DNA from: a virus
Direction: 5' to 3' (one strand)
IMG/VR virus record: IMGVR_UViG_3300032167_000278
Length of the DNA stretch: 43,015 nucleotides
The notes beneath the pieces were generated by a model. That model saw nothing but the letters and a program-made list of their open reading frames with translations. It was not told the DNA's origin and made no database searches. Positions 7,069 to 29,347 of this stretch are shown here, one piece after another; the stretch's first letter is position 1, and every line of letters begins with the position of its first letter. The position numbers and the translations under genes were made by a program.

Positions 7069-7347
7069 ATGGTAGGAATACCGAAGTATTGCCAGACAAA
7101 GAAAGACTGGCAAAATGCTGTTGATTATGCGGTTAAGCATAATACGGGCAAAACAGAATTGTACAGTCGTTTGCAGCATTTGCGTGACGATCACTACATG
7201 AATGTTTTGAAAGAAGAAAGCAAAGAAAAGCCTGTTGAAGAGCAGACCCCGGAAGACTACAAATCCGTAGACAATCCGGCTGCTGAAAAATACAGGATTG
7301 GAATTACAGACGAAGAAATTGAAAACATGATGGAGGCCCTTAAATGA
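7069..7347 (+). CDS. Hypothetical protein (ATGA-coupled to the DGR target gene)
   Basis: 92-aa ORF with aaggag RBS. Its stop overlaps the start of 7344. Confidence 0.5.
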   Translation: MVGIPKYCQTKKDWQNAVDYAVKHNTGKTELYSRLQHLRDDHYMNVLKEESKEKPVEEQTPEDYKSVDNPAAEKYRIGITDEEIENMMEALK

Positions 7348-8543
7348 GTTTAACTTTATACAAAGACCTTGTTGACGATTGTTCAGTTGCTTGCATTCCA
7401 GAAAGCGGAAATGTTAAATCTGTAAAAGCCGCTTTTTTGGAAAAGCAGAATCCTTTTGAATATGATGCAGACATTTTGAAGTTTGCTGAAGGTGTAGGAA
7501 TTCCAATCTGGAACGGTGAAACATGGGTTCAGACAATTAACCGTGAAGAATTCACTTTTGACCCTGCAAGTTTGCTTGATACAGGCAATGAGCTTGAATT
7601 TGGCATTGATTACTGGGTTTATATTTGTTTGGACGGTGGAAGCCCGGAAATTGTCGTTTCTAAAAACGAAAGTTTCCCGGACGGTTCAACAGCTGCAACT
7701 TCCCGTAAGATCGGACATTTTTATTATGGAGCTATTCGCAAAGTCTCAAATGATGGTTTGTGGATTCCGATTGATTCAGCCGGAAACAAGTTTGGATCAA
7801 GCGGCACAAAATGGCAGGACAATGTAACAGTCGGCATTGTTCCTAATTCAATTTGGGATTTAAAGCATAAGCCTAAAATTTCACATCCTGGACTTGTCGA
7901 AGTGAACGGCATTTGGATGGGTGCATTCCAGGCAAGCGCAGAAGAAGCCTTTTCCTTTATGGGCGGCACAAACGGCTTGCACATAAAGAGCGGAAAACTT
8001 GCCACAAAATACGGCGCAATTCCTGTTACTGGAAGCGAAGGAATGAATCAGTTTACATTCAACGAAATCGCGCATAAACAGGGCTTGCGTTTGCCGCGTT
8101 ATGCAGAATGGCTTGCTGGAGCTTTTGGCAGCCCGCAGGGTGAAGACGGTTCAAATAATTATGGTTGGACTAAAACAACCAACACAGGCAGAACTTATAC
8201 AGGCGTAGGCGTAAACACATCAACAGGCAAGCGTGATACCGCAAATGGCGTTAAACCTTATGCAATAAGTGCTTACAATTTGCATGATTGCGCCGGAAAC
8301 GTTGCAGAATGGACTTCTGATTATTCAATCAGACAGGATTCTACATCTTGGGCTTGGCAGGATGTTTTAGGTTCTGGCATGGGCCAGGCATATTTGCCGT
8401 TTGCGCGCGGTTTGTCTGCGCTGATTTGCGGTGACTGCTGGAACAACGGCGTTCGCTGTGGCCCTCGCACTGTGAGCGCGTACTACTGCCCGTGGTACGT
8501 CAACACGGACTTCGGGGCGCGGCTTGCCTGTGACGCGGCGTAG
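7344..8543 (+). CDS. DGR variable (target) protein; receptor-binding tail-fibre candidate with C-terminal FGE-sulfatase / C-type-lectin-like fold
   Basis: Motifs LPRYAEWLAGAFG and CAGNVAEWTSD resemble the FGE/CLec fold. The last ~50 codons are the VR. It is the last gene of the tail module. Confidence 0.85.
   Translation: MSLTLYKDLVDDCSVACIPESGNVKSVKAAFLEKQNPFEYDADILKFAEGVGIPIWNGETWVQTINREEFTFDPASLLDTGNELEFGIDYWVYICLDGGSPEIVVSKNESFPDGSTAATSRKIGHFYYGAIRKVSNDGLWIPIDSAGNKFGSSGTKWQDNVTVGIVPNSIWDLKHKPKISHPGLVEVNGIWMGAFQASAEEAFSFMGGTNGLHIKSGKLATKYGAIPVTGSEGMNQFTFNEIAHKQGLRLPRYAEWLAGAFGSPQGEDGSNNYGWTKTTNTGRTYTGVGVNTSTGKRDTANGVKPYAISAYNLHDCAGNVAEWTSDYSIRQDSTSWAWQDVLGSGMGQAYLPFARGLSALICGDCWNNGVRCGPRTVSAYYCPWYVNTDFGARLACDAA
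8387..8537 (+). repeat. DGR variable repeat (VR)
   Basis: Aligns base for base with 8999-9149 (offset 612). All differences are at TR adenines. Confidence 0.9.
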
Positions 8544-8549
8544 CCGCGT
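8533..8549 (+). promoter_or_regulatory. GC-rich hairpin at the VR 3' boundary (candidate DGR homing cis-element)
   Basis: acgcggc-gta-gccgcgt gives a 7-bp stem and 3-nt loop. It overlaps the target stop codon (8541-8543) and starts where VR/TR homology ends. Confidence 0.6.
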
Positions 8550-8596
8550 TCTGTTTCCTGTTTATCTGAATATCTGGTTTTCTTTGTGAGGTATAA

Positions 8597-8965
8597 ATGG
8601 ATTTTTCGCAAGAGAAACACCCTGCCGGGAGTGTGTGGAATCTGTTGCTTTTTCAGAAATTCTACGATTTTGATGTGTACTTTGAGCCGATAATAGAACG
8701 TTTTCCAGCGTTTGAAAAATCGGCTTGGTGCGCTCAAATTAAAAACACTTTGATAGACACGATAAAACTGATTTTGATAACAAACAAAGCCCGTGACAAA
8801 ATGCCGGGTTGGTATAAAGTAGACACCAATTTGGAGCTGCTTAAAATCTATATCCGGCGTATGCGTCAAAAGAAATATCTCTCAACCCGAACTTATGAAA
8901 CGGCAGTAAAGCGTCTTGCAGAGATAGGTAAGATTCTAGGCGGTCTTATCAATCGTAAAAACTAA
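8597..8965 (+). CDS. avd: DGR accessory variability determinant (Avd-like four-helix-bundle protein)
   Basis: 122 aa, basic and helical, positioned between VR and TR exactly as in the BPP-1-type cassette. RBS gtgagg. Confidence 0.75.
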   Translation: MDFSQEKHPAGSVWNLLLFQKFYDFDVYFEPIIERFPAFEKSAWCAQIKNTLIDTIKLILITNKARDKMPGWYKVDTNLELLKIYIRRMRQKKYLSTRTYETAVKRLAEIGKILGGLINRKN

Positions 8966-8998
8966 CATTTTTTACGAAAAGGCAGCTGAAACAAAATT

Positions 8999-9149
8999 GG
9001 CATATTTGCCGTTTGCAAACGGTTTGTCTGCGCTGATTTGCGGTAACAACTGGAACAACGGCGTTCACTGTGGCCCTCGCACTGTGAACGCGAACAACTA
9101 CCCGTGGAACGTCAACACGAACATCGGGGCGCGGCTTGCCTGTGACGAA
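8999..9149 (+). repeat. DGR template repeat (TR)
   Basis: Non-coding copy of VR. Contains 11 in-frame AAC codons. The apparent ORF 8997-9200 starts with TTG and only mirrors the VR frame. Confidence 0.9.
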
Positions 9150-9265
9150 TGTAAATTGTTAAGAAAAAGGCATACGCTGTTAATCACGGTTACGGCGTAG
9201 TGACGATTTATTTTTAACGTCAGTTCGGCTGCCTTTGCACGGCATTTGTTGTGCTAAAGTCTTAG

Positions 9266-9302
9266 ACCAGAAAGGCTACGCGCTTTTCTGGTTATTTTTT
9301 TT
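9266..9302 (+). terminator. Stem-loop plus T-run in the TR-RT spacer
   Basis: accagaaa/tttctggt gives an 8-bp stem (9266-9273 / 9285-9292). It is followed by tatttttttt, 11 nt before the RT start. Confidence 0.5.
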
Positions 9303-9313
9303 AGTAGGTAAAT

Positions 9314-10318
9314 ATGGATAAACCTAAATTTAGTGAAGTTTACGATTTTGAGAATTTATACTGTGCAGCTTATGAAACTATACAGGATAAAAAGTATTAT
9401 CCAGAAGAATTACAATTTGCAAGCAACCTCGAAGAAGAGCTGATTAAATTGCAAAATGAACTAATCTGGCATACATACATTCCTGGCGACTATTACTATT
9501 TTTGGGTTTATGATCCGAAAAAGCGGTTAATTTGCGCTCCAGAACTTAGAGACAGAATTATTCATACAGCTGTTTGCAGGGTGATAGAAAGATATATTGA
9601 ACCGCGCCTGGATTACGATTCTTATGCTTGCAGAAAGGGAAAAGGCGCACTGGATGCAGCGAATAGAGCCGGACTTTATGCAAACAAATATTCTCATTTT
9701 GTATATTTTGACATTAAAGGATTCTTTGACAGCATTCCAGTTTTGCCGCTTGAAGAAGTTTATCTTAAACGCTTTGTAGATGATTCTGAAATAATGTGGC
9801 TGCTGCATACAATCTTTATGAAAGATTGTAACGGCGTAGGCATAAAGAAAGGATGCAGAACAAGTCAGCTTTCAGCAAATGTTTATTTAAATGAATTAGA
9901 CCATTTTGTCCGGCATACACTTAAAGCAAAGGCGTATGTTCGATACATGGATGATTTTATAATCTTCAGTAATGACGTCGAATATCTGAAGTTTTGCTGG
10001 GCTGAAATAGCAAGGTTTCTGGAAGAAAAACTTTTCTTGAAACTTAACGGCAAAACCTTTATCGGTTCAACATCGCAAGGGTTTGAATTTGTAGGTTACA
10101 GGATTTTCAAAGATTATAAAATTGTGAGAAAAACCGCTTTAGACAGAAGTGCGAAAACCTTTAAATCATGGAAGAATGGCAAAGTTGACGATTTGTCCTT
10201 CTATCGGAGTACGGCAAGCCGTGTTGGACATTGCCAGGGCACGGCCAGTTACAAATGGTACTGTGAATATTTATTGAAAGCGTTGAAGTTTGTTCTGATA
10301 GACAGGGTGGAAAAATAG
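9314..10318 (+). CDS. DGR reverse transcriptase
   Basis: 334 aa. Has YMDD (VRYMDDFIIF), the DGR-type GxxxSQ motif (GCRTSQLSANVYLNELDH) and RLICAPELRDRIIHTAV. Adjacent to TR. Confidence 0.9.
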   Translation: MDKPKFSEVYDFENLYCAAYETIQDKKYYPEELQFASNLEEELIKLQNELIWHTYIPGDYYYFWVYDPKKRLICAPELRDRIIHTAVCRVIERYIEPRLDYDSYACRKGKGALDAANRAGLYANKYSHFVYFDIKGFFDSIPVLPLEEVYLKRFVDDSEIMWLLHTIFMKDCNGVGIKKGCRTSQLSANVYLNELDHFVRHTLKAKAYVRYMDDFIIFSNDVEYLKFCWAEIARFLEEKLFLKLNGKTFIGSTSQGFEFVGYRIFKDYKIVRKTALDRSAKTFKSWKNGKVDDLSFYRSTASRVGHCQGTASYKWYCEYLLKALKFVLIDRVEK

Positions 10319-10321
10319 GTT

Positions 10322-10996
10322 TTAGCTCAGTTTATCCATTTCTTTGTTAAAAATATCTTGCATCATTTGTGCTGCATAATCAGAAGCGGGTTCAAGCCAT
10401 GCGTTTTTAGGGGTTTGGGTGCTGTAGTATTTCAAGTTTAAAATGTGGGTAGATTTAAAAGAAACATTGTCGCCGCTTTTTCTAAAAGACGTAACCTTAA
10501 AAATAGAATTGTTCATGCGGATAAAGCCGTGCGTTTTGGCGGCAACGAAAGCACGGGCAACATGGGCGGCTTTTTTACTCTTAAAGTTGGTTGAACCGTG
10601 GACAACAAGAGGTTTTATTGCACTGTAATAATACGAACGGCGGACGGTTTTTAAATTTGAACCGCCACGGGCTTTTGTGGTCGGAATAACCAAATTTCCG
10701 TTCGTTCCCCTATGTGTTCCGCCTTTTTCCTGGCGTTCCATGTATGAGATTCGGTCTGTCGCGCCAGTTTCGCTTTTAATCTGATTAAGCGTTTTTACAT
10801 TTGAAGCGCACTTTGTAAAGCGTATTTGTTTTGTTGTAAAACTATTTCTTAATGTGAAACTGTTCTGAACATTGCGGATGGCGTTGTTTCGTGCTGTTGC
10901 CGCCACAATGTTTACAGTATTGATTCCAGCCTTCAAAAATCGGCGGTTTACGTCTGCGGTTACTTGTGAAAAAGAAGAAAATATTTTCGTTGCCAT
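10322..10996 (-). CDS. Hypothetical protein, possibly virion-associated (late motif upstream)
   Basis: The ORF track gives 10322-11086. The internal ATG at 10996 (MATKIFSS...) sits 22 nt downstream of a minus-strand copy of the late motif. Confidence 0.5.
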   Translation of the reverse strand: MATKIFSSFSQVTADVNRRFLKAGINTVNIVAATARNNAIRNVQNSFTLRNSFTTKQIRFTKCASNVKTLNQIKSETGATDRISYMERQEKGGTHRGTNGNLVIPTTKARGGSNLKTVRRSYYYSAIKPLVVHGSTNFKSKKAAHVARAFVAAKTHGFIRMNNSIFKVTSFRKSGDNVSFKSTHILNLKYYSTQTPKNAWLEPASDYAAQMMQDIFNKEMDKLS

Positions 10997-11018
10997 AATT
11001 ACAGAATAACAGGATTTT

Positions 11019-11036
11019 AAATTATCGCTATACCAA
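11019..11036 (-). promoter_or_regulatory. Late-promoter-like motif copy 6 (minus strand: TTGGTATAGCGATAATTT)
   Basis: Reverse complement of 11019-11036. Shares the 2-nt insertion variant seen at 27653. Confidence 0.5.
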
Positions 11037-11039
11037 AAA

Positions 11040-11348
11040 TTACAAATCATCAAACAAAGACGGCTGGTCATAGTCGGAAATTTCAAAATGCGAGAAAAGT
11101 TCTTTGAGTTTACGACTGTCTTTTATCCATGACTGGATACGGAAAACAGCTGCGCGTTGTGCGTCTTTTTCAGTCGGATATTTTGTTTCTTTTTCGGTGG
11201 GATAATAAGAACGAATGAAACGGCGCAGCTTGCAATTTATACTGTAAACAAAACCGTTTTCTACAGCATAAATTGTAAGTATGATTTGCGAGCCGTTTTT
11301 AGATTCATTGCGTTTTTGCACAACTGGCAAAGTCGAAACATAGGTCAT
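11040..11348 (-). CDS. Hypothetical protein
   Basis: 102-aa ORF. Its start overlaps the upstream stop (TAATG coupling). Confidence 0.5.
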   Translation of the reverse strand: MTYVSTLPVVQKRNESKNGSQIILTIYAVENGFVYSINCKLRRFIRSYYPTEKETKYPTEKDAQRAAVFRIQSWIKDSRKLKELFSHFEISDYDQPSLFDDL

Positions 11349-12292: not shown

Positions 12293-15200
12293 TTAGAAAA
12301 TATCCATTTCACCGTCTAAATCATCCGGGAAGCCCCAATCTGGTTCTTCTGGCGGCTGTGTGTAGGTTGGCGGTCGCTGCTTAAATTGTGTTGCGGGGCC
12401 ATTTGTCTGTGTTTTTTCTGCGCCATCACCAAACAAAGTGCCGTCATTCTGTTGCTGGGCTGGCGCGGTTTCATTCAAGGTTTGCAAGCCCTGTTCAGAG
12501 AGTTTGACATTAAAGAAAACAAGCTCCGGGTAGTTGTTTATCTTCTTCTGGCGGTAGTCAATTTCACGATAATCGCGTTTTAACAAGCGTACAAACTTAT
12601 TGCGGGTCAAGGCTTCTTTACTTTCGTCTGAAAGTCCATAGTATTTCAAATAACATTCATAAGCCTTTTGGACTTCTGTATAGATTCCGCCGGACAAATC
12701 AAATACCAGGCAATCATTAACAAATTTATCAAGGTCTGTTTTCTGCTCTTCGATATAGCGGCCTTTGTAACCTTCACATTCCGGGGAAAGCGGTATTTCA
12801 CCATGCAGATTGACATTCAAATCTATATAAAGCTCCATAAAATATTTGACAACAGCCGGAAATTCCGGGCGCAAGTAGTTTATGAAGCCTGTTGCCGTTT
12901 TGCCGCCTTCGCCTTTTTTATGCTGAATATTGAACGGAATTACAACCATTCGGGAAATTGCGGCTTCATCGTGAGCGTCAAAGTTTGGCGAATAGTTGGA
13001 TGCAATAATAATTTGCGCGGTTGGAATGAAGTCGTGCGGATCGCGGTACAATCCACGGGCTGTAAGAGTGTCGCCACCTGTAAGCTCTTTCCAGAAAGAT
13101 GTATTAAGTGAAGCATTGCGGGCGGTTTCCTGGGCGAATGCACAGCATTTTCCTTCCAGCTTCGCAATTTCTGGGTTTGCTTCGTTTCCGCTTGCGCGTT
13201 TGAATCCTGTTGAAACAAGTACATCCGATTTTACGCGGGCGCACATTCCTTTGAATATTTCTTCTACAATGTTACAGGTTGTAGATTTACCCGTTCCGCC
13301 TTTTCCTAAGAAAATGCCACCGTATTTAAAGCCAGTGTTACGGCTAGGAATGAGCGACAAATAATAAAGCAAGGTTTGAAGCGTTTTTTCGTCTTTAAAG
13401 TTACCCTTCATAAACTCCAAAAACCTTTCTGGCTTTCCAGCTTTGCGTAATTCTTCTTCTTTGTAAGGCAGCATTTCGCGGCGGTATTCTTCCGGGCGGC
13501 TTTTTCTGTATTCGATTTCTTTACCAGAAAAGTCTACTACACAATCTAAAAGCGTGAGCGTTTCGCGCATCTGCGGGCCGTCAAAAGGAACATTTTCACG
13601 GAATACATCGGGTTTTAAGCCGGACAAATCCTGCGCAAGTTCTACACGAAAGCGGCGACCTTCCAACTTTTTAACAAGGTCATTTATAAGACTTTTCTTG
13701 TCAAAATGCTTTTCAAGATACTTAAGCATGAGATTAAGCAGGATTGTATAAGCTGCGCCTGGTGCGTCTGGTTCGCGAACCCAAACGTGACCGTTGAAAA
13801 AATACCAGCGTTTTTCACATTCAACATAAATCAAACGCCCCTGCAATACGGATGCAACTGTAAGAGCGGCAGAGCGTACACCCTGCGTATTTAAGAACTG
13901 CAAAAAATTAACATCATTTTCCATTCTGTCATAATCAATGGAAACAATAGTTTGCTGCTCTTTTATGTTGCGCAAGATTTCACTTGCCGGAATGAGTGCT
14001 TTTTCAAGTTCACGGCGTAAGTAGTTTGAAACGCCGTATTTTTCGCATATTTCAAGGATAAAATAAGGGGTAATATTCGATTTCTTTTCAAGCTGCTTAA
14101 CAGTTATATTGCCTTCGCCCCATTTTAAGATTTCGTTGATTGTCTCTTTGTTTTTACAAGCCTTAACACAAGCAAGCGCAAAAAACTCTACATCTTCTTC
14201 GTCCAGTGAGTTATATTCAACTTTTTTAAGAAGTGAACGCAAGCGTTTAATGCTTAATGTGTCATAATCAAGCCATAAAGTGCCGTGAATCTCTTTTTTT
14301 ACTTCCGGCGTTTTATAAAGCTGCGCATTTTTGATTGCTTCAATAACAAGATCTGCACGACCTGCAAGAATTGCTTCGTCTGTGTCTTTGTATGGCACAT
14401 TATCCGGCAAAATTGCAACTTTGATTTGCCCTTTGAATCCAGCTTTTAAGAGTTTTTCGGGAATGCTTGTTTTGTATTTGTCGGTTTCTGCAAAAGGCAT
14501 TAAACCGAACATTTTTTGACCGATATAATTATTCTGTGCGTTGTCTTTATCTGCAAAGAATGTAATTTCCGGGATGTTATTAGGAATAATAAATTCCTGC
14601 GCTTTTGGTTCTGTAAGACCGTTTACGCCGCAAGTTGAAAATACATTTTCAATTCCAGCTGCACGGCAAGCGATAGCGTCAAATTCACCTTCAACAAAAA
14701 CAACAGGTTTTTCTTTTGGCAAAAGTCCTGGCATTGGAAAAGGGCTTATTCCTTTTGTATTTACTTTATTGCTTTTGCCGCCTAAATAATAATTAAGCTT
14801 AAAGCCGGAAAAACCTTTAAAAACAACGCCGCTTGCTTCCCAAAGACTTTTATTTCCTTTTTCGGGATTGCGTCCGGGGATGCCCGCGCCAACGAGCGTC
14901 TGCCAGCCAAGTTCAGCTTCGGCAATGGTGTAGCCGGGCCAGTAGAAAAAATAGCTTACCATGCGGTCGCGCACTTCAACAGGGTATGTCTGAAGCTGAT
15001 TATTTGTTTTAATCTGCGCGCGGCGGTTTAAATACTTTGTGACTTCTTCATTGCGTGATTTATGGCGTTTAAAATAATCTTCCAGCTTTTTAACACAATC
15101 TGGATCAGTCGCAAAATCTTCTGTTTTGCGTGTTTTTGAAGCGGATTTTTTAGGTAAAACGAGGGTTGTTGATGCGCCGCCAAAAGTGCGTTCTATTTCT

Positions 15201-15427
15201 TTGAACTGTTCGGCTTTGTCTGTTATGCCCTGCAAGATTTCTACAGCATCGTAAATATCGCCATGTATGCCACAGGAATAGCATTTGAAGTGGTCTTCAA
15301 AAAGTTCGCAAGAGGGGTTTTTGTCTTCATGCTGCGGATTAAAGCAACGGATTAAGCCGCGCTGGGCTTCAATGCCCTTGTATTGGAGATATTGCAATAA
15401 GCTGTTTTTATATTTTGAAAAGTCCAT
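12293..15427 (-). CDS. Bifunctional primase-helicase (CHC2 zinc finger + TOPRIM + D5/P4-type SF3 NTPase)
   Basis: CFNPQHEDKNPSCELFEDHFKCYSCGIHGD (zinc finger), VFVEGEFDAIACRAAG (TOPRIM), GKGGTGKST (Walker A). 1044 aa. Confidence 0.85.
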   Translation of the reverse strand: MDFSKYKNSLLQYLQYKGIEAQRGLIRCFNPQHEDKNPSCELFEDHFKCYSCGIHGDIYDAVEILQGITDKAEQFKEIERTFGGASTTLVLPKKSASKTRKTEDFATDPDCVKKLEDYFKRHKSRNEEVTKYLNRRAQIKTNNQLQTYPVEVRDRMVSYFFYWPGYTIAEAELGWQTLVGAGIPGRNPEKGNKSLWEASGVVFKGFSGFKLNYYLGGKSNKVNTKGISPFPMPGLLPKEKPVVFVEGEFDAIACRAAGIENVFSTCGVNGLTEPKAQEFIIPNNIPEITFFADKDNAQNNYIGQKMFGLMPFAETDKYKTSIPEKLLKAGFKGQIKVAILPDNVPYKDTDEAILAGRADLVIEAIKNAQLYKTPEVKKEIHGTLWLDYDTLSIKRLRSLLKKVEYNSLDEEDVEFFALACVKACKNKETINEILKWGEGNITVKQLEKKSNITPYFILEICEKYGVSNYLRRELEKALIPASEILRNIKEQQTIVSIDYDRMENDVNFLQFLNTQGVRSAALTVASVLQGRLIYVECEKRWYFFNGHVWVREPDAPGAAYTILLNLMLKYLEKHFDKKSLINDLVKKLEGRRFRVELAQDLSGLKPDVFRENVPFDGPQMRETLTLLDCVVDFSGKEIEYRKSRPEEYRREMLPYKEEELRKAGKPERFLEFMKGNFKDEKTLQTLLYYLSLIPSRNTGFKYGGIFLGKGGTGKSTTCNIVEEIFKGMCARVKSDVLVSTGFKRASGNEANPEIAKLEGKCCAFAQETARNASLNTSFWKELTGGDTLTARGLYRDPHDFIPTAQIIIASNYSPNFDAHDEAAISRMVVIPFNIQHKKGEGGKTATGFINYLRPEFPAVVKYFMELYIDLNVNLHGEIPLSPECEGYKGRYIEEQKTDLDKFVNDCLVFDLSGGIYTEVQKAYECYLKYYGLSDESKEALTRNKFVRLLKRDYREIDYRQKKINNYPELVFFNVKLSEQGLQTLNETAPAQQQNDGTLFGDGAEKTQTNGPATQFKQRPPTYTQPPEEPDWGFPDDLDGEMDIF

Positions 15428-15700: not shown

Positions 15701-16690
15701 TTACCCCAAAGTCTTTGCGTCTGGATTGTCCGAAAGGAAAATCAACCGATGTAAACCGGGGTCATATTTCAAACCGGAAATTTCAAAAACACGCCCACAG
15801 TCTTGTATGCAAAGCGTTGTATCTGGTGCAACCTTTTTTAACTTCTGTTCAAGACTTAAAAGAAAACTTTCTTTGTCCGCTGTTGCGTAATTCAGCCAAA
15901 TAAACAGTTCGCAATTTTTAGGCTTACTACTCACGTGAGTAGTCGGCTTTGTCTCTTTTTCAGATTCGTAAAAATCAGATTCAGACATTGAAGACGGTTC
16001 AATCATTTCGTCAAAATCCGGCACTTCAATTTCTGAATTGTCTTGTTTTTCACCTTTGTATTCATGCAGAATTTTTGTGGCGGCTGCATTCGTTCCGCCA
16101 GCTTCGTTCAGTTCCTGCACTTTACCCGGCAAATCTTCTGCATCCACGCTTCTAAGCTGTGCGAGCGCACGAGTTTTTAGCGAGCTTGTATCAATGCCAG
16201 CCACTTCAGCCTTTTCGCGCACTTTCGTTCCTGCCACAATGTCAGAAACATAGCTGATTGGCTTTGAAAGAAGGTCTGCTATTTCCTTCTGGGAAAGCCC
16301 TTTTTCAAGCATTTCGCGGATTGCGTTTTCTTTGTCCTGGGCGGTCAAATCAGTGCGCTGGATATTCTCAATCATTTGCAGCGTCCATGTCTCGCCTGTT
16401 CGGATACAGCATTCCACAAGTCCCACATCCACGCCCTGTTTCTGCAAAAAAGCAAGCGCACGCAATCGGCGATGACCACAAATCAACTCATAAACATTCT
16501 TACCCAAGCCCGGTTCAATAACGCCGGGTTTTACCGTAAGAGGATTAAGAAGCCCGTTTGTCTGAATGCTTTTTGCAAGGTTTTCGATTTCCTGCCAGTC
16601 GTAAACCTTGCGGACATTGCCGCTTTCTTCACGGATTTGTTCAAGAGGAATCTTTATTGTTGAAAGATTGTTGTTTGAAAACTTTGCCAT
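15701..16690 (-). CDS. parB: ParB-family partition protein
   Basis: ParB/Srx box LICGHRRLRA, HTH region GLSQKEIADLL. Immediately downstream of parA. Confidence 0.85.
   Translation of the reverse strand: MAKFSNNNLSTIKIPLEQIREESGNVRKVYDWQEIENLAKSIQTNGLLNPLTVKPGVIEPGLGKNVYELICGHRRLRALAFLQKQGVDVGLVECCIRTGETWTLQMIENIQRTDLTAQDKENAIREMLEKGLSQKEIADLLSKPISYVSDIVAGTKVREKAEVAGIDTSSLKTRALAQLRSVDAEDLPGKVQELNEAGGTNAAATKILHEYKGEKQDNSEIEVPDFDEMIEPSSMSESDFYESEKETKPTTHVSSKPKNCELFIWLNYATADKESFLLSLEQKLKKVAPDTTLCIQDCGRVFEISGLKYDPGLHRLIFLSDNPDAKTLG
15926..15943. repeat. CACGTG palindrome copy 1 (ACTACTCACGTGAGTAGT), inside the parB coding region
   Basis: Perfect 18-bp palindrome, translated in frame as TTHVSS in ParB. 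Confidence 0.85.
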
Positions 16691-16691
16691 T

Positions 16692-17408
16692 TTATGCCCA
16701 CTCCTTGCCTGTTACGGTCTGAATAAAATTCATCATGCGGCTTTCTACGGTTGCGGGAATCTTATATTCCGGGTTTTGAACGAGCTTCTGGAAGCTGTTC
16801 ACAAGCGGAATGGGATTTTCAATCATAAAGTCGCCGAAAGTGTTTTTGTATTGTTCCCAAATGTTGCCAGGGTCGCGGTTTTTGTTATAAGCATTGCAGA
16901 CGACAAAAACTTCTGATTCAAGGCAGCAATCCTGCAATGTGTCCATGTATTGCAAAGTTGCCTTGTAATCCAGCGGCGAACATTTGCCGCTTACAATGAT
17001 TGTGTCAGAAGCAAAGACTGCGTTGCGTGTCTGGGCGTTCCAAGTTCCCGGCGGGTCGATGATGATGTAGTCGTATTTTTCTGCAAGGCCCTGTTTTTTG
17101 ATTTCCAGCTTTAGCTTTGTGTCCATTACGTTTGAAAGCATGGATAAATCCAGGTCTTCCGGGATAATTGAAAGACTTCCGCCGCTTTCATGCTCTTTGA
17201 GCAAATACGGCTGGACTTCGCGGCCTGTAAGAAGAAGTTTTGAATTCTGGTCTTGCAAAACTTTTCCGTAGACTTCTGAAATGCTGCAATTCGGATCAAG
17301 GCCGATTATCAGCACTTTTTGAGCGTGCCTGTAAAGAAATTCTGCAAGCAGTGTGTTTAAGGTGGTTTTTCCTGTGCCGCCTTTTTTGTTGGTTGTCGTT
17401 AAAATCAT
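16692..17408 (-). CDS. parA: ParA-family partition ATPase
   Basis: Deviant Walker A NKKGGTGKTT near the N-terminus. 238 aa. Confidence 0.85.
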   Translation of the reverse strand: MILTTTNKKGGTGKTTLNTLLAEFLYRHAQKVLIIGLDPNCSISEVYGKVLQDQNSKLLLTGREVQPYLLKEHESGGSLSIIPEDLDLSMLSNVMDTKLKLEIKKQGLAEKYDYIIIDPPGTWNAQTRNAVFASDTIIVSGKCSPLDYKATLQYMDTLQDCCLESEVFVVCNAYNKNRDPGNIWEQYKNTFGDFMIENPIPLVNSFQKLVQNPEYKIPATVESRMMNFIQTVTGKEWA

Positions 17409-19305: not shown

Positions 19306-20565
19306 ATGTCTCAAGAATACCTTGCATTGCAGGAACGCAAGCGGAAATGGATTCCACTTGCATGTATCGGCAGATGCTCTATTGCACAAGCTGCATTAAA
19401 TATTGGAATTACAGAAAGGGGTGTTTCATATCTAAAACACCGATACCGTTTATACGGCGATTCGATTTTCACAAATGGTCACAAAGGAAAAACTCAGAAG
19501 AAGCGGTACAGTGACGATTTGCGGAAAGAAATATGCAGAATATACCGCAACTATTGGCCAGACTCTAATTTCAGCGCATTCAAAGATCGCTTGATAACCT
19601 ATCACAACATCAAAATTGGAATAATTACACTTACAGAAATTCTACAATCAGACGGTATAAAATCACCAAAAGCACATTCAAAAGGCAAGAAAAAGAAACA
19701 TTTACCACGAAAAGAACGCCCCTGTACTGGTGAATTGCTGCAATTAGACGCTTCCAACCACGACTGGCTTATGAACGGCGAAAAAATAACGCTTCACGGG
19801 GCTGTTGATGACGCTACGCATGAACCGACAGGACTTTATTTCTGCCGGAATGAATGTAGACTGGGTTACAGTGAAGTTTTAAGACAAACTCTTACATTAC
19901 AAGGAAAACCAGAAGCTGTTTACATCGACAGACATGCGGCTTTTGTGAAAAACGCACGGAAAAAAGATAAAACACTGGAAGAGCGGCTTGAATACAGCAA
20001 GGAAGAAGAGACACATTGGACGGAAATCTGCAATGAACTGAATACGAAAATTATTTTAGCCCTGTCCGCAGAAGCAAAAGGCAGGATTGAACGATTTTGG
20101 GAAACTCTACAAGGTCGTTTGCCGCAGTTATTCAGATTTTTAGGCATAGATACGATTGAAAAAGCAAACGAATTCATGCCGACCTACATAAAAATGTACA
20201 AAGAACGCTTTGCCGTTCCCCCGCAGGACGAAAAAACACACTACAAACCCGCAAACATGACAGAGAACGAGCTTGAATATTTACTTTCCGTGAAGTTCCA
20301 GAAGAAAACACGATGGAACGGAGAGTTTATTTTTCACGGATTTTTATTTCATCTTGAAGCCCCTAGGGCCGCTTGTCGCGATTTCACACTTTGCCTTTCT
20401 GAAAAAACAGGAATCTGGGCGTTTATGGACGGCAAATATTACCCCGTTACCCTGGCAGAACCGCTTACAGACTGTGTTGGCGACCCGATGCCGCAGGTTG
20501 AAAAAGATTTGATTGAACGGTATTTGCTGAAATCCACACGGGTACAGCGTTACGCTTTTGGGTAA
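19306..20565 (+). mobile_element. DDE (rve-type) transposase gene; IS element boundaries not resolved
   Basis: N-terminal HTH, LQLDAS...AVDDATHE...AVYIDRHAAF...KGRIERFWETLQ (D, D, E pattern). ATG 19306 preferred over the track's TTG 19300 because the RBS tagggg lies 7 nt upstream. Confidence 0.7.
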
Positions 20566-22846: not shown

Positions 22847-24832
22847 ATGCCACAGGTTAAAATCAATTTTGACGATGTAGATTTTTTAATTGAACAGTTC
22901 TCACGATTAACGGCACAGCGAAGCTACAGGAAGCCGAGCGAATACATTGAAAGTGTGCGTTACATTGACCGTGCGCTTTCACCTTTTCCGGGCAAATTCA
23001 GCTATGACAAGTTTCCGTATTTTAGGGAAATTGTAGACCAGTTTGCGCCGGATTGCCCGACAAGACGTGTTTATGTTATGAAGGGAAACCAGGTTGGAGC
23101 TACAACAGGACTGCTTGAAAGCATAATGATGTATTACATTGGCGAAAATCCTGCGCCGCAACTTTATGTTTTGCCGGACGAAATGATGGCCCGTGATGCC
23201 GTAAACACTAAAATTGACCCGACAATAGACAACTGCGGATTAAGAAACCTTATTTTCAGCCAGACAAGAAAAGCGGCGGGCGCAAAAAATACAGGCGATA
23301 CAGGATTAAAAAAGGAATATCCGGGCGGATATTTACACGCCGTTGGAGCCGGAAGCGGAAACCGCTTCAGAAACTTTTCTTACAAAATTGAGCTTGTGGA
23401 CGAAGCGGACGGAATGCAAGCCAAAGTTAAAGGCGAAGGTTCGATTTATGATTTGGCGGTTGCCCGTCTGGATGCCTACCCTACGAGCAGCAAACTTTTT
23501 ATTGGTTCAACACCAACAGAAGAAAGAAGCAGCTTGATTGCAAAACTTTTTAGAAACGGAACAATGAAGTATTTTTATGTTCCATGCAAGTTTTGCGGCG
23601 AAATGCAGAAACTTGAATGGGCAGTATGGAACGAAGATAAAACAGAGCAGATAGGCGGCATCGTCTGGGAAAACAACGAAAACTTTGAGCCGATTTTAGA
23701 GACAGTCGGCTATAAATGCCCGTATTGCGGCGGCATTATGAAAAACTACGACAAGGCAGCCATTGTTCCTAAAGGTGAATGGCGGGCAAGTCAAAAGCCG
23801 ATTCAGCCAAATACGGAAAGTTATCACATAACAGCTTTGTACAATCCGCCGGGAATGTTTTCCTGGGAAGACTATGTAAGCCAGTGGGCGGGATGCTGGG
23901 ATATTAAGGCAAACAAGGTGCGAGACAAAGAACGCTACAGAGTTTTCCGCAACCTTAAACAAGGGCTTACATTCCAGGAACAAAACGAGCAAATCAAATA
24001 CGAAAAGGCTGTCTTGCACAGGCGTTTTGGTTTTGCGCGCGGCACGATTCCAAACAAGATGGCGCGAGAAGAAGCCGGAAGCCCGATTCTTATTCTTGTT
24101 TGCGCAGTCGATGTTCAGAAAAACGGTTTGTATGTTGACATAAAAGGCTTTGCCATGAACGGCGTTACATACACGATTGACTTTAAGTTTATAGAGGAAG
24201 CGACGGAGCAATTCGGCGGCCCGTGGGATGAGCTTGAACAGATTATTGAAAACGGCATTTTTACCGACGAAGACGGCTTAAACTACCGCATTGCAATAAC
24301 GCTTGTTGATTCCGGCCATTATACGGATTGGGTTTATTCCTTTGTGGCGCGATTTACGGCGGGCGTTTACGCTTCAAAAGGTATGGACTGGATCAAGGGC
24401 GGCGAGACTTACCAGCTTTTCAGCCGCGCAACACTTGACCGAATAGGTTTGCCGCTTGCGTATCATGTGAATACAGGAAAACTTAAAGACCGAATTTCAA
24501 ACAGTATGAATGTTTTAAGGTGGAACGAAGGTGAAAAACAGCCAGCATGGTTCCCGAACTTCCCGGAAAACTTTAGGGATGATTACTTCAAAATGTTTGA
24601 AGCGGAAGAGAAAGTTGAAGTTATAGACAAGAATACGGGCCAATGGCTGAAGACAATCTGGCGGGCTAAATTTGGAGCTGCAAACCACGGCTTTGATACA
24701 TACGTTTATGCTTTGGCGGCTTTGGAGATTCTGGCGGATGATATTTGCAGAAACGAAATCGGGCTAAAGGCTTTGGACATGGGCGTTTTCTGGAGATATG
24801 CAAAACAGAATCTTATTCCGGGGGAAAAATAA
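22847..24832 (+). CDS. terL: Terminase large subunit (lambda gpA family)
   Basis: 661 aa. N-terminal ATPase region (VMKGNQVGATTGLLE), zinc-like CKFCG...CPYCG pair, size and position typical of gpA. Confidence 0.8.
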   Translation: MPQVKINFDDVDFLIEQFSRLTAQRSYRKPSEYIESVRYIDRALSPFPGKFSYDKFPYFREIVDQFAPDCPTRRVYVMKGNQVGATTGLLESIMMYYIGENPAPQLYVLPDEMMARDAVNTKIDPTIDNCGLRNLIFSQTRKAAGAKNTGDTGLKKEYPGGYLHAVGAGSGNRFRNFSYKIELVDEADGMQAKVKGEGSIYDLAVARLDAYPTSSKLFIGSTPTEERSSLIAKLFRNGTMKYFYVPCKFCGEMQKLEWAVWNEDKTEQIGGIVWENNENFEPILETVGYKCPYCGGIMKNYDKAAIVPKGEWRASQKPIQPNTESYHITALYNPPGMFSWEDYVSQWAGCWDIKANKVRDKERYRVFRNLKQGLTFQEQNEQIKYEKAVLHRRFGFARGTIPNKMAREEAGSPILILVCAVDVQKNGLYVDIKGFAMNGVTYTIDFKFIEEATEQFGGPWDELEQIIENGIFTDEDGLNYRIAITLVDSGHYTDWVYSFVARFTAGVYASKGMDWIKGGETYQLFSRATLDRIGLPLAYHVNTGKLKDRISNSMNVLRWNEGEKQPAWFPNFPENFRDDYFKMFEAEEKVEVIDKNTGQWLKTIWRAKFGAANHGFDTYVYALAALEILADDICRNEIGLKALDMGVFWRYAKQNLIPGEK

Positions 24833-24836
24833 AAAA

Positions 24837-25592
24837 ATGAGAAGACAGATTGCTTATAACATGGACTGCATGGACTTAATGAAACTGTTGCCAGACAATG
24901 AATTTGACTTGGCGATTGTAGATCTGCCCTATGGGGGGGGGTACACGCCGCTTGTGGTGGACGGTTTGACCGATACGAACCGAAAAAGCAAAAGGCAGAA
25001 GCCACACCGTACAGGGGGCATCTTTAGCAACGCTGAAGAAATCAAAGTTGGACGCACGGGCGGAACATGGGCTGCAAAATACGGAAGCAAAGTTGCGCAA
25101 TGGGATATTGCGCCGGATGACGAATATTTTAAAGAGCTTTTCAGAGTAAGCAAACGACAAATAATCTGGGGCGGAAATTATTTTAACCTGGGTGCAAGCC
25201 GTTGTTATTTGGTATGGAGAAAAAGCAATATTCCGGCAGAAGGTTTTTCGCTTGCGCCTGTTGAACTTGCATGGACGAGTTTAAACGAAAATGCAGCCTA
25301 TTTTGAATGCGGTTCAAATGGAGCTGAAGACGGAACAAGAATTCACCCTACACAAAAACCGATTGCGTTATATACATGGATTTTGCACAGGTTCGCAAAA
25401 CCTGGCGACAAGATTTTAGATACACACTTAGGCAGCGGTTCAAGCAGGATTGCAGCGCACGAAATGGGCTACGATTTTGTAGGATGCGAAAAGGACACTG
25501 AATATTTCCTTTTGCAGGAAAAGCGTTTTAAAAGCTGGATTGCACAGCAAAGCCTTTTTGAAATGGACGGCGGGCAGCCAGTGTTATTCTAA
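24837..25592 (+). CDS. Beta-class amino (N6-A or N4-C) DNA methyltransferase with an internal G9 tract
   Basis: Motif IV DLPYG near the N-terminus and motif I DTHLGSGSS near the C-terminus (beta order). ATG 24837 follows the terminase stop. G9 at 24933-24941. Confidence 0.75.
   Translation: MRRQIAYNMDCMDLMKLLPDNEFDLAIVDLPYGGGYTPLVVDGLTDTNRKSKRQKPHRTGGIFSNAEEIKVGRTGGTWAAKYGSKVAQWDIAPDDEYFKELFRVSKRQIIWGGNYFNLGASRCYLVWRKSNIPAEGFSLAPVELAWTSLNENAAYFECGSNGAEDGTRIHPTQKPIALYTWILHRFAKPGDKILDTHLGSGSSRIAAHEMGYDFVGCEKDTEYFLLQEKRFKSWIAQQSLFEMDGGQPVLF
24933..24941 (+). repeat. G9 homopolymer encoding GGG directly after the DLPY catalytic motif
   Basis: Counted directly: tat ggg ggg ggg tac. Confidence 0.85.
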
Positions 25593-25639: not shown

Positions 25640-26032
25640 TTACGCGGTTATTGTTGCGGCAATACCAAGTTTTTTATACAAGGATTCCTGCAATGTTTGA
25701 CTAAAATTGATTGCAGCTTTTTCAGCGCGAGCAGAAAGCCATTCTGGAAGAGTTACATTTTTTCTTACAAACTTGCCGCTGTTTGATATATCGCAGGAAA
25801 TGTAAGTTGAAAAATCACCTTCCTTTGCATGAATACTTGTGATTGTGCTTGCTTCTGGAAGATTGCCGCCTTTTTCAAGAACTGAAATGACATAACCTTC
25901 AAGAGCTTCTTTTGCATTTTCCACAATCTCTAATTCTGTATCACCCTGCGAGAAGCAACCGTCCAAATCTGGAAATTCACACCAATAGCCGCCGTCTTCA
26001 AAGTGGCAGATTGCCGGATAAACAATATTCAT
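25640..26032 (-). CDS. hicB: HicB-family antitoxin
   Basis: N-terminal HicB fold (YPAICHFEDGGYWCEFPDLDGCFSQGDTELE) and C-terminal RHH-like segment. Downstream of hicA. Confidence 0.8.
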   Translation of the reverse strand: MNIVYPAICHFEDGGYWCEFPDLDGCFSQGDTELEIVENAKEALEGYVISVLEKGGNLPEASTITSIHAKEGDFSTYISCDISNSGKFVRKNVTLPEWLSARAEKAAINFSQTLQESLYKKLGIAATITA

Positions 26033-26714: not shown

Positions 26715-27560
26715 ATGAATATGACAGTTTATGAAATCGTAACAGACAAAATCATCAAGCAGATGGAAAAGGGAATTATTCCGTGGCACAAACCATGTCA
26801 TGGCGGAATGGCAAAATTCAACCGCGTAAGCAAAAAAGGCTATTCTGTTTTGAACCAGCTTCTTTTGCCTTTTGACGGCGAATATGCAACGCTCAAACAG
26901 TGGAATGAGCTTGGCGGCAAGGTTAAGGCAGGGGAAAAGGGAAACATTGTTACTTACTGGAATTTCATCAATAAGACCGAAAAGCAGGAAGATGGAACTG
27001 AAAAGGTAAAATCTTTTCCGATTCTTCGCTATTACACTGTTTTTCACATTTCACAAGTCGAGGGCGTTGAACCTCTTAAAAACATCGACTTTGCCAATAT
27101 GGAAGTTGAAAGCGCAGAAGACGTAAAGAACACTTACTTTGAGCGTGAAAGCTGCCGCCTTTTCGTGGAGAAATCAGATCGCGCATACTACAGCCCTTCT
27201 TTTGATGAAGTTCACGTGCCGGAACTGAATCAGTTTGAAAACAGCGATGAATTTTATTTAACCTTGTTTCACGAAATGACACATTCAACAGGCGCGGCAA
27301 TCAGACTTGACCGCCTTTCAAGCACTGCTTTCTTCGGCAACGAGGATTACAGCAAAGAAGAACTTGTTGCAGAAATCGGAAGCGCAATGCTCTCAAGTGT
27401 TGCCGGACTGAACACAGAAAAGACTTTCAACAATTCAGTTGCTTACTTGCAGAGCTGGCTTAGAGTTCTTAAAAACGATCCGCGCATGATTGTAAGCGCG
27501 GCAAGCAAGGCTGAAAAAGCTGTTGATTATATTCTGTACGGAACAAAAGAAGCGGCATAA
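26715..27560 (+). CDS. ardC: ArdC-like antirestriction protein (ssDNA-binding N-domain + zincin metalloprotease)
   Basis: N-terminus IIKQMEKGIIPWHKP...YSVLNQLLL...ATLKQWNELGGKVKAGEKG. C-terminal HEMTH (HExxH). ATG 26721 has better RBS spacing and may be the true start. Confidence 0.75.
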   Translation: MNMTVYEIVTDKIIKQMEKGIIPWHKPCHGGMAKFNRVSKKGYSVLNQLLLPFDGEYATLKQWNELGGKVKAGEKGNIVTYWNFINKTEKQEDGTEKVKSFPILRYYTVFHISQVEGVEPLKNIDFANMEVESAEDVKNTYFERESCRLFVEKSDRAYYSPSFDEVHVPELNQFENSDEFYLTLFHEMTHSTGAAIRLDRLSSTAFFGNEDYSKEELVAEIGSAMLSSVAGLNTEKTFNNSVAYLQSWLRVLKNDPRMIVSAASKAEKAVDYILYGTKEAA

Positions 27561-27985: not shown

Positions 27986-29347
27986 ATGGGCAAACTTAAT
28001 ATTGTTGATATGTTCTGCGGTGGCGGTGGTGAATCTACAGGACTTATAGAAGCTGCGCATGATTATAATTTTGATGTAAACATGAGCGCAATTAACCACT
28101 GGGAAAGAGCGATTGAAACGCATTCAAAGAATTATCCTTTTGCGGAACACCGTTGCGAAAATGTGCAACACATACAGCCGCAAACGCTGAAGGCAAGCAA
28201 AAACACTGATTTAATGTGGGCAAGTCCCGGATGTCAGCATTTTTCAACGGCCAGAGGTGGCAAACCGCGTTCTGAAGATATGAGGTCGCCAGCATGGGAA
28301 GTGCTTAGATTTGCAGAAGAACTTAGACCAAAAAGAATTATTATTGAGAATGTGCCGGAATTCAGAACATGGGGGCCGTTAGATCCAGAAGGAAAAATAA
28401 TAAAAGAATGCAAGGGAAAAACTTTTGACGCTTTTATTTCCGGCTTGCGGTCGCTGAATTATATTGTTGATTGGCAGGTTTTGTGCGCTGCTGATTATGG
28501 TGCGCCTACTTCAAGAAGACGGCTTTTTATTCAAGCTGTAAGAAAAGATTGCGGCAAGCAGATTTTGTGGCCGGAACCAACGAATGTAAAAGGCGGTGAT
28601 TTGATTTTACCAAACTGGCATAGCGCAGCGGAAATAATAGACTGGTCGATTCCTAGTCAAATTATCAGCCAGAGAAAAAAGCCATTAGCAGCGGCAACAA
28701 TGCGGCGTATTGAATACGGGATTAAAGAATTCTGGGGAGATTCAGCCGTTCCTTTTATCGCTCGACTGTACGGACAATCTAAAGCCGAAAGTATAGAAAA
28801 ACCGCTTTCAACAATTTCTTGCAGCGGCGCACATCACATGCTTATTACACCCTTTTTATGCAGATACAACAAAGGAAACAACAGAGTTCATTCAATCAAT
28901 GAACCAGTTTCTACCCTTGACTGTTCAAATAGATACGGGCTTGTAGAACCTTTTATTTCCGCTATCGGCCAAACATCCGCACGGCAGAGAAACAGAAGAT
29001 TGAATGAGCCGCTTTCTACAATCTGCACAAAACAGGAACATTGCCTGGTTTCGCCAATGCTGATTCAGTATTACGGAAACGGCCACGCTGTTTCATTAAA
29101 AGAGCCGATTCCAACACTTACAACAAAAGACAGATACGCACTTATTGGAACTGATAAATACGGAATTGAACTAGGCTTTAGGATGCTGCAACCGAAAGAA
29201 CTTGCGGCGGCTACAGGATTCCCGGAAGACTATATTTTTACAGGCACAAAAGTTGATGTTGTCAAACAGATAGGAAATGCCGTACCGCCTAATTTTGCGC
29301 GGGCATTGTTCGGGCAGATTCTCAAAGAATCAATAAATGAAAAATGA
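27986..29347 (+). CDS. DNA cytosine-5 methyltransferase
   Basis: Motif I DMFCGGGG, motif IV SPGCQHFS, motif VI IIIENVPEF, motif X QIGNAVPP. Confidence 0.85.
   Translation: MGKLNIVDMFCGGGGESTGLIEAAHDYNFDVNMSAINHWERAIETHSKNYPFAEHRCENVQHIQPQTLKASKNTDLMWASPGCQHFSTARGGKPRSEDMRSPAWEVLRFAEELRPKRIIIENVPEFRTWGPLDPEGKIIKECKGKTFDAFISGLRSLNYIVDWQVLCAADYGAPTSRRRLFIQAVRKDCGKQILWPEPTNVKGGDLILPNWHSAAEIIDWSIPSQIISQRKKPLAAATMRRIEYGIKEFWGDSAVPFIARLYGQSKAESIEKPLSTISCSGAHHMLITPFLCRYNKGNNRVHSINEPVSTLDCSNRYGLVEPFISAIGQTSARQRNRRLNEPLSTICTKQEHCLVSPMLIQYYGNGHAVSLKEPIPTLTTKDRYALIGTDKYGIELGFRMLQPKELAAATGFPEDYIFTGTKVDVVKQIGNAVPPNFARALFGQILKESINEK

Follow-up and report, generated by a model that had tools for sequence, protein, structure and literature searches.

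Does a stretch of phage DNA that carries a pair of direct repeats, a reverse transcriptase (RT) gene and a gene for a tail protein hold a system for rewriting the end of that protein? The question is raised by positions 7344 to 10318 of the virus record IMGVR_UViG_3300032167_000278, whose whole stretch of 43,015 nt is called the window hereafter. An earlier note, made from the letters of the window, had proposed a complete diversity-generating retroelement (DGR) consisting of a target gene ending in a variable repeat (VR), an accessory gene (avd), a template repeat (TR) and an RT gene. This proposal is supported by the adenine specificity of the mismatches between the repeats, by the identity of Avd, by an RT resembling the BPP-1 enzyme (bRT) and by a target resembling the BPP-1 protein Mtd. 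We are highly confident that the region is a complete BPP-1-type DGR, ordered target, avd, TR and RT, in a myovirus-type phage of about 42.9 kb that belongs to gut and rumen Treponema. Judged from the sequences, the DGR is real and probably active, which would imply a variable host-receptor specificity of the phage. The components of the cassette are as follows.

7344..8543, plus strand: target gene, 399 amino acids, Mtd-like putative receptor-binding tail protein with an N-terminal domain, the Mtd second domain and a C-terminal fold like that of C-type lectins and formylglycine-generating enzyme (FGE)
8387..8535, plus strand: VR, coding for the final ~50 residues of the target, a gapless repeat with the TR
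8597..8965, plus strand: avd accessory gene, 122 amino acids, matching bAvd, NF033474, phrog_3206 and Protein Data Bank (PDB) entries
8999..9147, plus strand: TR, non-coding, with 32 adenines, 22 of them in 11 AAC codons
9314..10318, plus strand: DGR reverse transcriptase, 334 amino acids, with YMDD and KGCRTSQ, matching RVT_1, phrog_1423 and bRT

Adenine-specific differences between the two repeats

The gapless alignment at an offset of 612 that had been claimed for the two repeats was reproduced, and the direct repeat measures 149 nt (VR 8387-8535 against TR 8999-9147). The TR is composed of 32 adenines and 117 other positions. All 14 mismatches between VR and TR fall on TR adenines (hypergeometric P = 2.9e-11), so that 14 of the 32 adenines are changed while 117/117 non-adenine positions are identical; every changed position and base listed in the earlier note was recovered, and realignment of the window VR and TR showed no substitution at a non-adenine TR position. 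A9148 and A9149, taken in that note for a ragged edge of the repeat, do differ in the VR but are better placed outside the repeat, probably so because all similarity stops there.

The VR lies in the frame of the target open reading frame (ORF), and the TR is non-coding. Read in the target frame, the TR contains 11 AAC codons, which hold 22 of its 32 adenines, and eight of the 11 are recoded in the VR, to R, D, C, S, Y, Y, Y and D, just as had been described. The changes CAC>CGC (His>Arg), TAC>TGC (Tyr>Cys) and ATC>TTC (Ile>Phe) were likewise all found, together with one further, silent change (GCA>GCG). The estimate of 15^11 = 8.6e12 variants from the AAC codons is arithmetically right; adding the seven other non-silent codons that contain adenine, with four residues each, raises the theoretical repertoire to 15^11 x 4^7, or ~1.4e17 proteins. 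According to the list of all adenine-containing codons, no adenine substitution in the TR can reach a stop codon. The target is of the C-type-lectin class with a C-terminal VR, and the TR adenines sit in AAY codons, as in known DGRs. The window was searched for further VRs, and none was found beyond VR 8387-8535.

Diversification across the phage population

Relatives with 75-97% RT identity are Treponema metagenome-assembled genomes (MAGs) from gut and rumen and IMG/VR fragments; individual loci among them carry L numbers below. Related Treponema phage genomes gave 22 non-redundant VR/TR pairs, in which adenine specificity was counted. Within these pairs the VR differs from the TR at 304/699 adenine sites (43.5%) versus 15/2547 other sites (0.59%), close to the rates measured for BPP-1, which are ~50% at adenines and 0-0.5% elsewhere, with rare insertions or deletions (PMC6182149). 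Some of the residual non-adenine mismatches fall on sites that are polymorphic among TR alleles. All 22 VRs are distinct, on only 16 TR alleles. Furthermore, of 47 non-adenine bases at which a TR departs from that of the window, 45 recur in its cognate VR. Because these non-adenine changes of a TR reappear in its own VR, each lineage transfers information from its TR to its VR, and adenine-specific transfer from TR to VR takes place in this population.

The diversity of the target is concentrated at the same place. Clustered at 90% identity, the target belongs to a group of 707 proteins; 12 full-length members of it all have different VRs, with 21/52 VR positions variable compared with 31/347 positions elsewhere in the protein. 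A circular contig from JGI 3300031555 (Ga0318466_10019302, 43,169 nt), with an RT identical to that of the window, carries two VR alleles. Its overlapping ends (L014:1-190 and L071:4044-4295) have identical flanks, and their VRs differ at ~20 positions and by one inserted codon; the assembly evidently broke at the hypervariable site. One of these alleles shows two changes at non-adenine positions and 3 nt inserted in frame. A count of 28 apparent non-adenine mismatches in L014 was rejected as an artefact of ungapped comparison across the 3-nt VR insertion; with gaps allowed, the differences are 14 at adenines and 2 at other bases.

The exact Avd sequence occurs in 1102 blocks of the assembly collection. 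When IMG/VR was scanned with the whole TR, each adenine being replaced by N, no exact match emerged, and the relatives there came via the RT protein only. Megablast of the locus against deposited phage genomes gave no match, the closest RT in deposited phage records is 42% identical in a protein search, and a literature search turned up no paper describing this phage. As a side observation, a 174-kb contig of a Treponema MAG (JAZQQW010000072.1) contains two inverted DGR copies ~24 kb apart, L022 (71153-78154) and L023 (95745-102746), with identical TR and VR; the pair may be a genuine duplication or may have arisen in assembly.

A target protein with the architecture of Mtd

The earlier reading of ORF 7344-8543, with its GNVAEW motif, as ending in an FGE/C-type-lectin-like fold was borne out by Pfam and by the predicted fold. 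Pfam matches are mtd_2nd (PF21916; 2.8e-14, 53.8 bits against a cut-off of 24.6) and FGE-sulfatase (1.3e-8), and the PHROG match is phrog_11262, a tail protein (3e-39). The closest solved sequence relatives of the target in a PDB sequence search are BPP-1 Mtd structures (2iou/1yu0). The AlphaFold (AF2) model has a mean predicted local distance difference test (pLDDT) of 93.6 and a predicted template modelling score (pTM) of 0.90, and Foldseek aligned it over its full length with five solved Mtd variants (1yu0-1yu4; template modelling (TM) score 0.62-0.69, E ~1e-19). The three-domain Mtd architecture is present, including both N-terminal domains specific to Mtd. Other DGR variable proteins (TaqVP and TvpA) and FGE enzymes are much weaker fold matches; those to FGE are ~15 orders of magnitude weaker than those to Mtd and cover the C-terminal domain alone.

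The gene neighbourhood points in the same direction. The tail module runs from the tape measure and baseplate hub through gp46-, gp47- and gp48-like proteins and two small ORFs to the target at its end, downstream of the baseplate J and gp48-like genes, and the Pfam and PHROG matches of the neighbours confirm the target as the final gene of a Mu-like baseplate module. The 399-amino-acid protein would thus have a distal tail-fibre or receptor-binding role.

Public records name homologues of the target 'SUMF1/EgtB/PvdO family nonheme iron enzyme' (Prokaryotic Genome Annotation Pipeline, PGAP) or 'formylglycine-generating enzyme'. Phage receptor-binding proteins of the Mtd type thus seem to be systematically misannotated as FGE-type enzymes.

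Avd and the reverse transcriptase

The 122-amino-acid product of the gene between VR and TR, described before as Avd-like, proved to be Avd. It scores above the cut-offs of Pfam (PF22296 bAvd, 1.5e-20, 74.1 bits against 40) and of the NCBIfam equivalog NF033474 DivGenRetAVD (81.5 bits against a curated cut-off of 80), it matches phrog_3206, 'Avd protein of DGR', and in PDB it matches the BPP-1 Avd structures 4dwl and 8ub7_B.

The RT matches RVT_1 in Pfam (2.7e-20) and phrog_1423 (3.8e-91). Its best-scoring class in PDB is that of DGRs, with bRT (8ub7_A) at E 2.9e-39 and 138.7 bits, compared with ~1e-12 and 41-51 bits for group II, retron and Cas-associated RTs. A grouping with retron, group II or abortive infection (Abi) RTs had been named beforehand as evidence against a DGR; by search scores the RT is nearest to bRT by a wide margin. 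NCBIfam holds no dedicated DGR RT model matching the RT, and its group II, retron and defence-associated RT (DRT) models score it far under each of their cut-offs. The residues bRT K29, F66, R74, I76, D138, G182, Q187 and D215/D216 are kept, the catalytic aspartates included, and six of them (K29, F66, R74, I76, G182 and Q187) are contacts of the template or the incoming deoxynucleotide.

The motifs YMDD and GxxxSQ are both present, as had been noted, but the full motif, KGCRTSQ, opens with Lys instead of the published Ile, Val or Leu. It ends in SQ, the DGR form, not in the SP of QGxxxSP, and its Q185 aligns with bRT Q187. The published signature of DGR RTs is [I/V/L]GxxxSQ, and Ile181 of bRT promotes adenine mutagenesis (PMC7826257). 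The Lys at this position is found in 10/10 RTs of the Treponema clade. Among 53 RTs from genome contigs, the first motif residue is I in 42, L in one and K in 10, the 43 more distant enzymes having I or L. The 50%-identity library holds one representative for the RT clade, and the next is 44% identical; among the nearest 150 representatives, 143 have the searched motif pattern, 138 of these in the form GxxxSQ, and 135 of the 138 have I, L or V, with K solely in the representative of the Treponema clade. Since the VRs of the clade show the usual frequency of diversification, Lys does not preclude adenine mutagenesis; and since the clade shows adenine-specific diversification, Ile, Val or Leu should be regarded as a signature residue and not as a requirement for membership.

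The natural substitution spectrum in the VRs, as it stands after selection, is A>G 111 (55%), A>T 67 (34%) and A>C 22 (11%). One could imagine that the clade has a natural variant RT, with Lys in place of the residue that touches the incoming deoxynucleotide (bRT I181), with ~44% adenine mutagenesis per site and a possibly shifted spectrum, and that the terminal stem-loop with its U8 run, described below, acts as a terminator uncoupling template RNA production from RT translation; we regard this combined idea as tentative and unlikely to hold as a whole.

In two sister loci (L002:10714-11502 and L009:10714-11502) the RT has a common truncation at residue 262, with the thumb domain gone. Both carry the window's TR, yet their VRs are unlike each other, which suggests diversification after the truncation (possibly with an RT acting in trans), recombination, or an independent history.

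RNA structure around the template repeat

The order of RNA elements known from the BPP-1 ribonucleoprotein structure (bioRxiv 10.1101/2023.10.23.563531) could be traced between avd and the RT gene. The intergenic RNA folds with z = -4.9 against shuffled sequences. Covariation of its helices was assessed on an alignment of 14 relatives with a consensus fold, slid controls and 500 shuffles. In five helices with 50 pairs, 99.4% of pairs are kept, and there are 11 compensatory double changes, compared with at most one in the slid controls; 0/500 shuffles reach the observed value. The elements are listed here, with their BPP-1 equivalents.

8978..8990, plus strand: upstream strand of the 13-bp stop duplex, AAAGGCAGCUGAA, predicted to close the TR, equivalent of BPP-1 cPRT Stop avd:Sp
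9142..9147, plus strand: predicted complementary DNA (cDNA) start, with G9142 as first templating base and U9143-G9147 pairing with 9218-9222, by analogy with BPP-1 TR G117 and Sp A56
9170..9201, plus strand: Avd-binding-like stem-loop, with a 13-bp stem, two bulged bases, tetraloop CACG (9185-9188) and 3 compensatory pairs
9218..9222, plus strand: primer strand CGUCA, with A9222 as predicted priming adenosine, by analogy with BPP-1 Sp47-56/A56
9224..9236, plus strand: downstream strand of the stop duplex, UUCGGCUGCCUUU, from the RNA fold and the consensus fold, with 3 compensatory pairs in L024
9237..9258, plus strand: short stem-loop (9237-9254), then U and AAA (A9256-A9258), equivalent of the BPP-1 cPRT Stop stem-loop and A-minor adenosines
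9259-9264: short single-stranded stretch, equivalent of the BPP-1 'thumb ring'
9265..9302, plus strand: 12-bp stem-loop (9265-9293), then U8 (9295-9302), equivalent of the bRT-binding stem-loop, with 4 compensatory pairs in L024

The predicted duplex of template and primer (9143-9147 with 9218-9222) has 5 bp and one compensatory pair, and G9223 is a 1-nt linker between the primer strand and the stop duplex. A9145, which lies in this duplex, is the sole TR adenine that is unaltered in 15 distinct VRs, every other one being altered in at least three. A stem-loop that binds Avd has been described for BPP-1 and 207 other DGRs (bioRxiv 10.1101/2023.10.23.563531) and is matched in position and form by 9170-9201, whose tetraloop is UACG in some relatives. 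In L024 the stem at 9237-9254 is shorter, and the stem-loop and the adenosines are still there. The last stem-loop (9265-9302) adjoins the RT start codon on the upstream side and scores as an intrinsic terminator in a scan for terminator-like sequences; if it does stop transcription, the RT would have to be expressed by read-through or from a separate promoter. No Rfam family matched anywhere in the window, neither an intron RNA nor a curated DGR RNA.

DNA elements at the 3' end of the variable repeat

Two DNA elements were located where the VR ends.

8513..8535, plus strand: invariant 3' end of the VR, like the initiation of mutagenic homing (IMH) sequence, consisting of the 11-nt G/C-only CGGGGCGCGGC (8513-8523) followed by TTGCCTGTGACG, identical to TR 9125-9147
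8533..8549, plus strand: DNA hairpin or cruciform with a 7-bp GC-rich stem (ACGCGGC/GCCGCGT) and the loop GTA, from the DNA fold and the scan for terminator-like sequences

After the last variable adenine, VR and TR have 24 invariant bases in common. This IMH-like end is kept in nearly all relatives, with single substitutions in L019, L024, L075 and L077. The hairpin adjoins the 3' end of the VR, the target stop codon TAG (8541-8543) straddles its loop and stem, and no hairpin follows the TR. Its stem changes among relatives: L006 and L017 have a compensatory pair (CAGC-GTAA-GCTG), and in L022 and L023 the stem is wholly replaced (GCAAATGC-GTA-GCATTTGC), while the position of the hairpin and its loop are kept despite these changes. 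In BPP-1 a (GC)14 tract and the IMH are followed by a hairpin or cruciform that is needed for retrohoming and is present after most VRs; hairpins of phage DGRs have 4-nt GRNA loops at 4-34 bp from the VR, and the loop size is critical in BPP-1 (PMC3240598). The GC-rich IMH-like end and the hairpin confined to the VR are thus both present in the window, with a deviating loop and spacing.

A mechanism proposed by homology

By homology with BPP-1, the following sequence of steps can be proposed. A transcript covering the 3' flank of avd, the TR and the ~166-nt spacer would fold so that the duplex 8978-8990/9224-9236 closes the TR and the 3' end of the TR (9143-9147) pairs with 9218-9222. The complex of RT and Avd may then bind the stem-loops 9170-9201 and 9265-9293, prime from A9222 and copy the TR from G9142 toward its 5' end, placing random nucleotides opposite adenines. 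The resulting cDNA would replace VR 8387-8535, the direction being set by the GC-rich invariant 3' end and the DNA hairpin, the latter standing after the VR and not after the TR. The outcome could be up to ~1e17 variants of an Mtd-like ligand-binding face, hence a variable host-receptor specificity.

Alternative explanations

Several observations weigh against a complete and working DGR as described. The VR of the window clone is largely fixed: the exact 399-amino-acid target occurs in 32 blocks of the collection compared with 40 for the exact RT, and the same VR is found in three other samples (L011-L013). K179 of the RT stands at the position of bRT I181; the VR hairpin, with its 3-nt GTA loop and zero spacing, is unlike the published phage consensus; and all 11 compensatory RNA pairs stem from one divergent relative (L024, 75% RT identity), so the covariation, coming from a single lineage, gives moderate support for a DGR RNA structure. 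The signs that retrohoming may operate in this genome are population-level sequence traces, namely distinct VRs, coconversion and two alleles in one sample, and the arguments for a receptor-binding role of the target are homology to Mtd and synteny. One could accordingly ask whether the DGR is genuine in origin and is now a silent relic, with a VR written earlier and merely inherited. The identical VRs of L011-L013 from different samples, the 32 blocks against 40, the Lys in place of the mutagenesis-promoting Ile and the truncated RTs of L002 and L009 would all fit such a relic. On the other hand, the RT, Avd, the TR, the hairpin and every RNA helix are intact and have been kept through compensatory change; one sample with an identical RT has two VR alleles on identical flanks; and the Lys is common to an entire clade whose VRs all differ. 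The stable VR of the clone implies that homing must be rare, conditional or strongly selected, not continuous, and rare homing would itself predict a stable consensus VR. Tropism switching in BPP-1 has a frequency of ~1e-6. We therefore consider a silent relic quite improbable, and a complete DGR that is probably active remains the preferred reading.

Whether the target, in a real DGR, could be something other than a receptor-binding tail protein, such as an FGE-like enzyme or a protein displayed on the surface of the lysogen, was considered in view of the nonheme iron enzyme annotation (SUMF1/EgtB/PvdO family) of its homologues and of the FGE enzymes among its weaker fold matches. The Mtd match, however, is full-length and includes the two N-terminal domains specific to Mtd, the FGE matches lie ~15 orders of magnitude lower and reach the C-terminal domain only, and the gene stands directly 3' of the baseplate J and gp48-like genes, which makes such an enzyme or surface protein very improbable. 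It is scarcely credible that the RT belongs to another class (group II maturase, retron, Abi or DRT) and that the locus is an intron or a defence system. NCBIfam is without a dedicated DGR RT model, and its top match for the RT is a group II RT/maturase at 108.9 bits, but this lies far under the cut-off of 300, as the retron and DRT models lie under theirs, and the group II classification was rejected on that score. The 138.7 bits to bRT compared with at most 51 for group II, retron and Cas-associated RTs in PDB, the motif ending in SQ and not SP, the window free of intron RNA or any other Rfam family, and the DGR-type GxxxSQ in 138/143 of the nearest motif-bearing representatives all speak for a DGR enzyme. 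Finally, normal mutation of a plain duplicated or gene-converted tract beside an unrelated RT gene would account for the existence of a direct repeat and nothing else. This reading was refuted by the mismatch test in the window (P = 2.9e-11) and by the population counts (304 versus 15), the asymmetry is invariably in the direction of an adenine in the TR, the VR is in frame and the TR does not code for protein, and Avd and a DGR-type RT adjoin the repeats, so that we give this explanation practically no credence.

Genome context and lifestyle

The window has a terminal direct repeat of 127 nt (1-127 = 42889-43015) and a G+C content of 42.4%. Owing to this repeat, it represents a circular assembly of 42,888 bp, and the tape-measure gene spans the junction of the circle (~41309 to 613). 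Its virion and packaging genes comprise terminase, portal, protease, major capsid protein, sheath, tube, tape measure and the Mu-like baseplate; those for replication and maintenance are ParA, ParB, primase-helicase, a single-stranded DNA-binding protein (SSB) and an HU-like protein; and others are HicAB, ArdC, two methyltransferases, a CHAP lysin and a DDE transposase. Those located individually are listed below; for the transposase, the ORF finder placed a TTG start two codons upstream of the called gene.

12293-15427, minus strand: primase-helicase
15701-16690, minus strand: ParB
16692-17408, minus strand: ParA
19306-20565, plus strand: DDE transposase (phrog_8463, 1e-28; weak Pfam rve match)
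24798-25592 and 27986-29347, plus strand: two DNA methyltransferases
25640-26032, minus strand: HicB antitoxin, with HicA called alongside in sister contigs
26715-27560, plus strand: ArdC-like anti-restriction protein

The terminase and portal genes are separated by an accessory block made up of HicB, the ArdC-like protein and the two methyltransferases. Directly 3' of the RT, the ORF at 10322-11086 (minus strand) matches a 'minor tail protein' PHROG (4e-21) despite its location in the replication and partition arm.

The earlier note had described the phage as otherwise looking like a ParABS-maintained plasmid prophage. ParA, ParB, the replication genes, the circular 42.9-kb assembly and a clone that was never found on a contig above 50 kb agree with this, but the DDE transposase and sister lineages on contigs of up to 680 kb do not, and the plasmid-prophage reading is best called plausible and partly supported. 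The window clone occurs on contigs of ~43 kb only, in keeping with an episome or free phage. Sister lineages with an identical Avd are found on Treponema contigs of 150-680 kb, in one case adjoining host-like genes, and the lifestyle (episome versus integrated) may differ between lineages. On the 680-kb contig (L004:11719-20369), the genes past the RT and DUF4406 are AraC, GrpB, an acetyltransferase, RloB and AAA_21 instead of the primase/ParAB module, and this region may be a degraded or rearranged integrated copy.

Comparison with known systems

This phage lineage is very widespread in metagenomes from gut and rumen, so that the evolution of receptor tropism in Treponema can be followed well in nature; the genus is characteristic of ruminants and of non-industrialised human guts. 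The phage adds a well-documented phage DGR to the spirochaetes, where the sole Treponema DGR studied so far is chromosomal and of another architecture. That element, in Treponema denticola, comes without phage genes, has an HRDC accessory gene (architecture C) and serves several remote lipoprotein targets of the TvpA type (PMC4891356, PMC5758913). The two systems have in common the host genus and a variable protein of the C-type-lectin/FGE type, and TvpA is a weak match to our target in both sequence and fold; the element described here differs in being phage-borne, in using Avd and in having one adjacent target of the Mtd type. DGRs of the Bacteroides 'Hankyphage' and of crAss-like phages, which are temperate or uncultivated gut phages, are likewise reported to diversify a tail or receptor-binding protein (PMC6199706, PMC7290462), and their hosts and phage backbones are unlike those of the Treponema phage.

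BPP-1 is the best solved relative for target, Avd and RT alike, and its gene order (mtd, avd, TR, brt) is that of the Treponema phage. The likeness extends to the GC-rich invariant 3' end followed by a DNA hairpin containing the stop codon, to the spacer RNA elements in the same order, and to the substitution of about half of the adenine sites. The differences are partly a matter of distance, the target being 19% identical in the structural alignment and the RT match being remote (E 3e-39), and partly of setting, since the Treponema phage has a spirochaete host and a myovirus-type virion module with a Mu-like baseplate. Others concern details of the elements. The hairpin loop is GAAA in BPP-1 and a 3-nt GTA abutting the repeat in the Treponema phage; the upstream strand of the stop duplex lies inside avd in BPP-1 and after the avd stop codon here; the 'thumb ring' single strand has 13 nt in BPP-1, whereas its equivalent here has ~6 nt; and the last stem-loop of the Treponema phage has a U8 run behind it. 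The Treponema phage RT has Lys at bRT Ile181, so that the clade bears a natural substitution at the residue experimentally shown to tune adenine mutagenesis. In gene order, proteins and cis elements this is a BPP-1-type DGR with nothing that alters the known workings of such elements, a solid finding that will not surprise the specialist. With every RNA and DNA cis element of BPP-1 locatable at such distance, it provides an independent test case for the BPP-1 mechanism.

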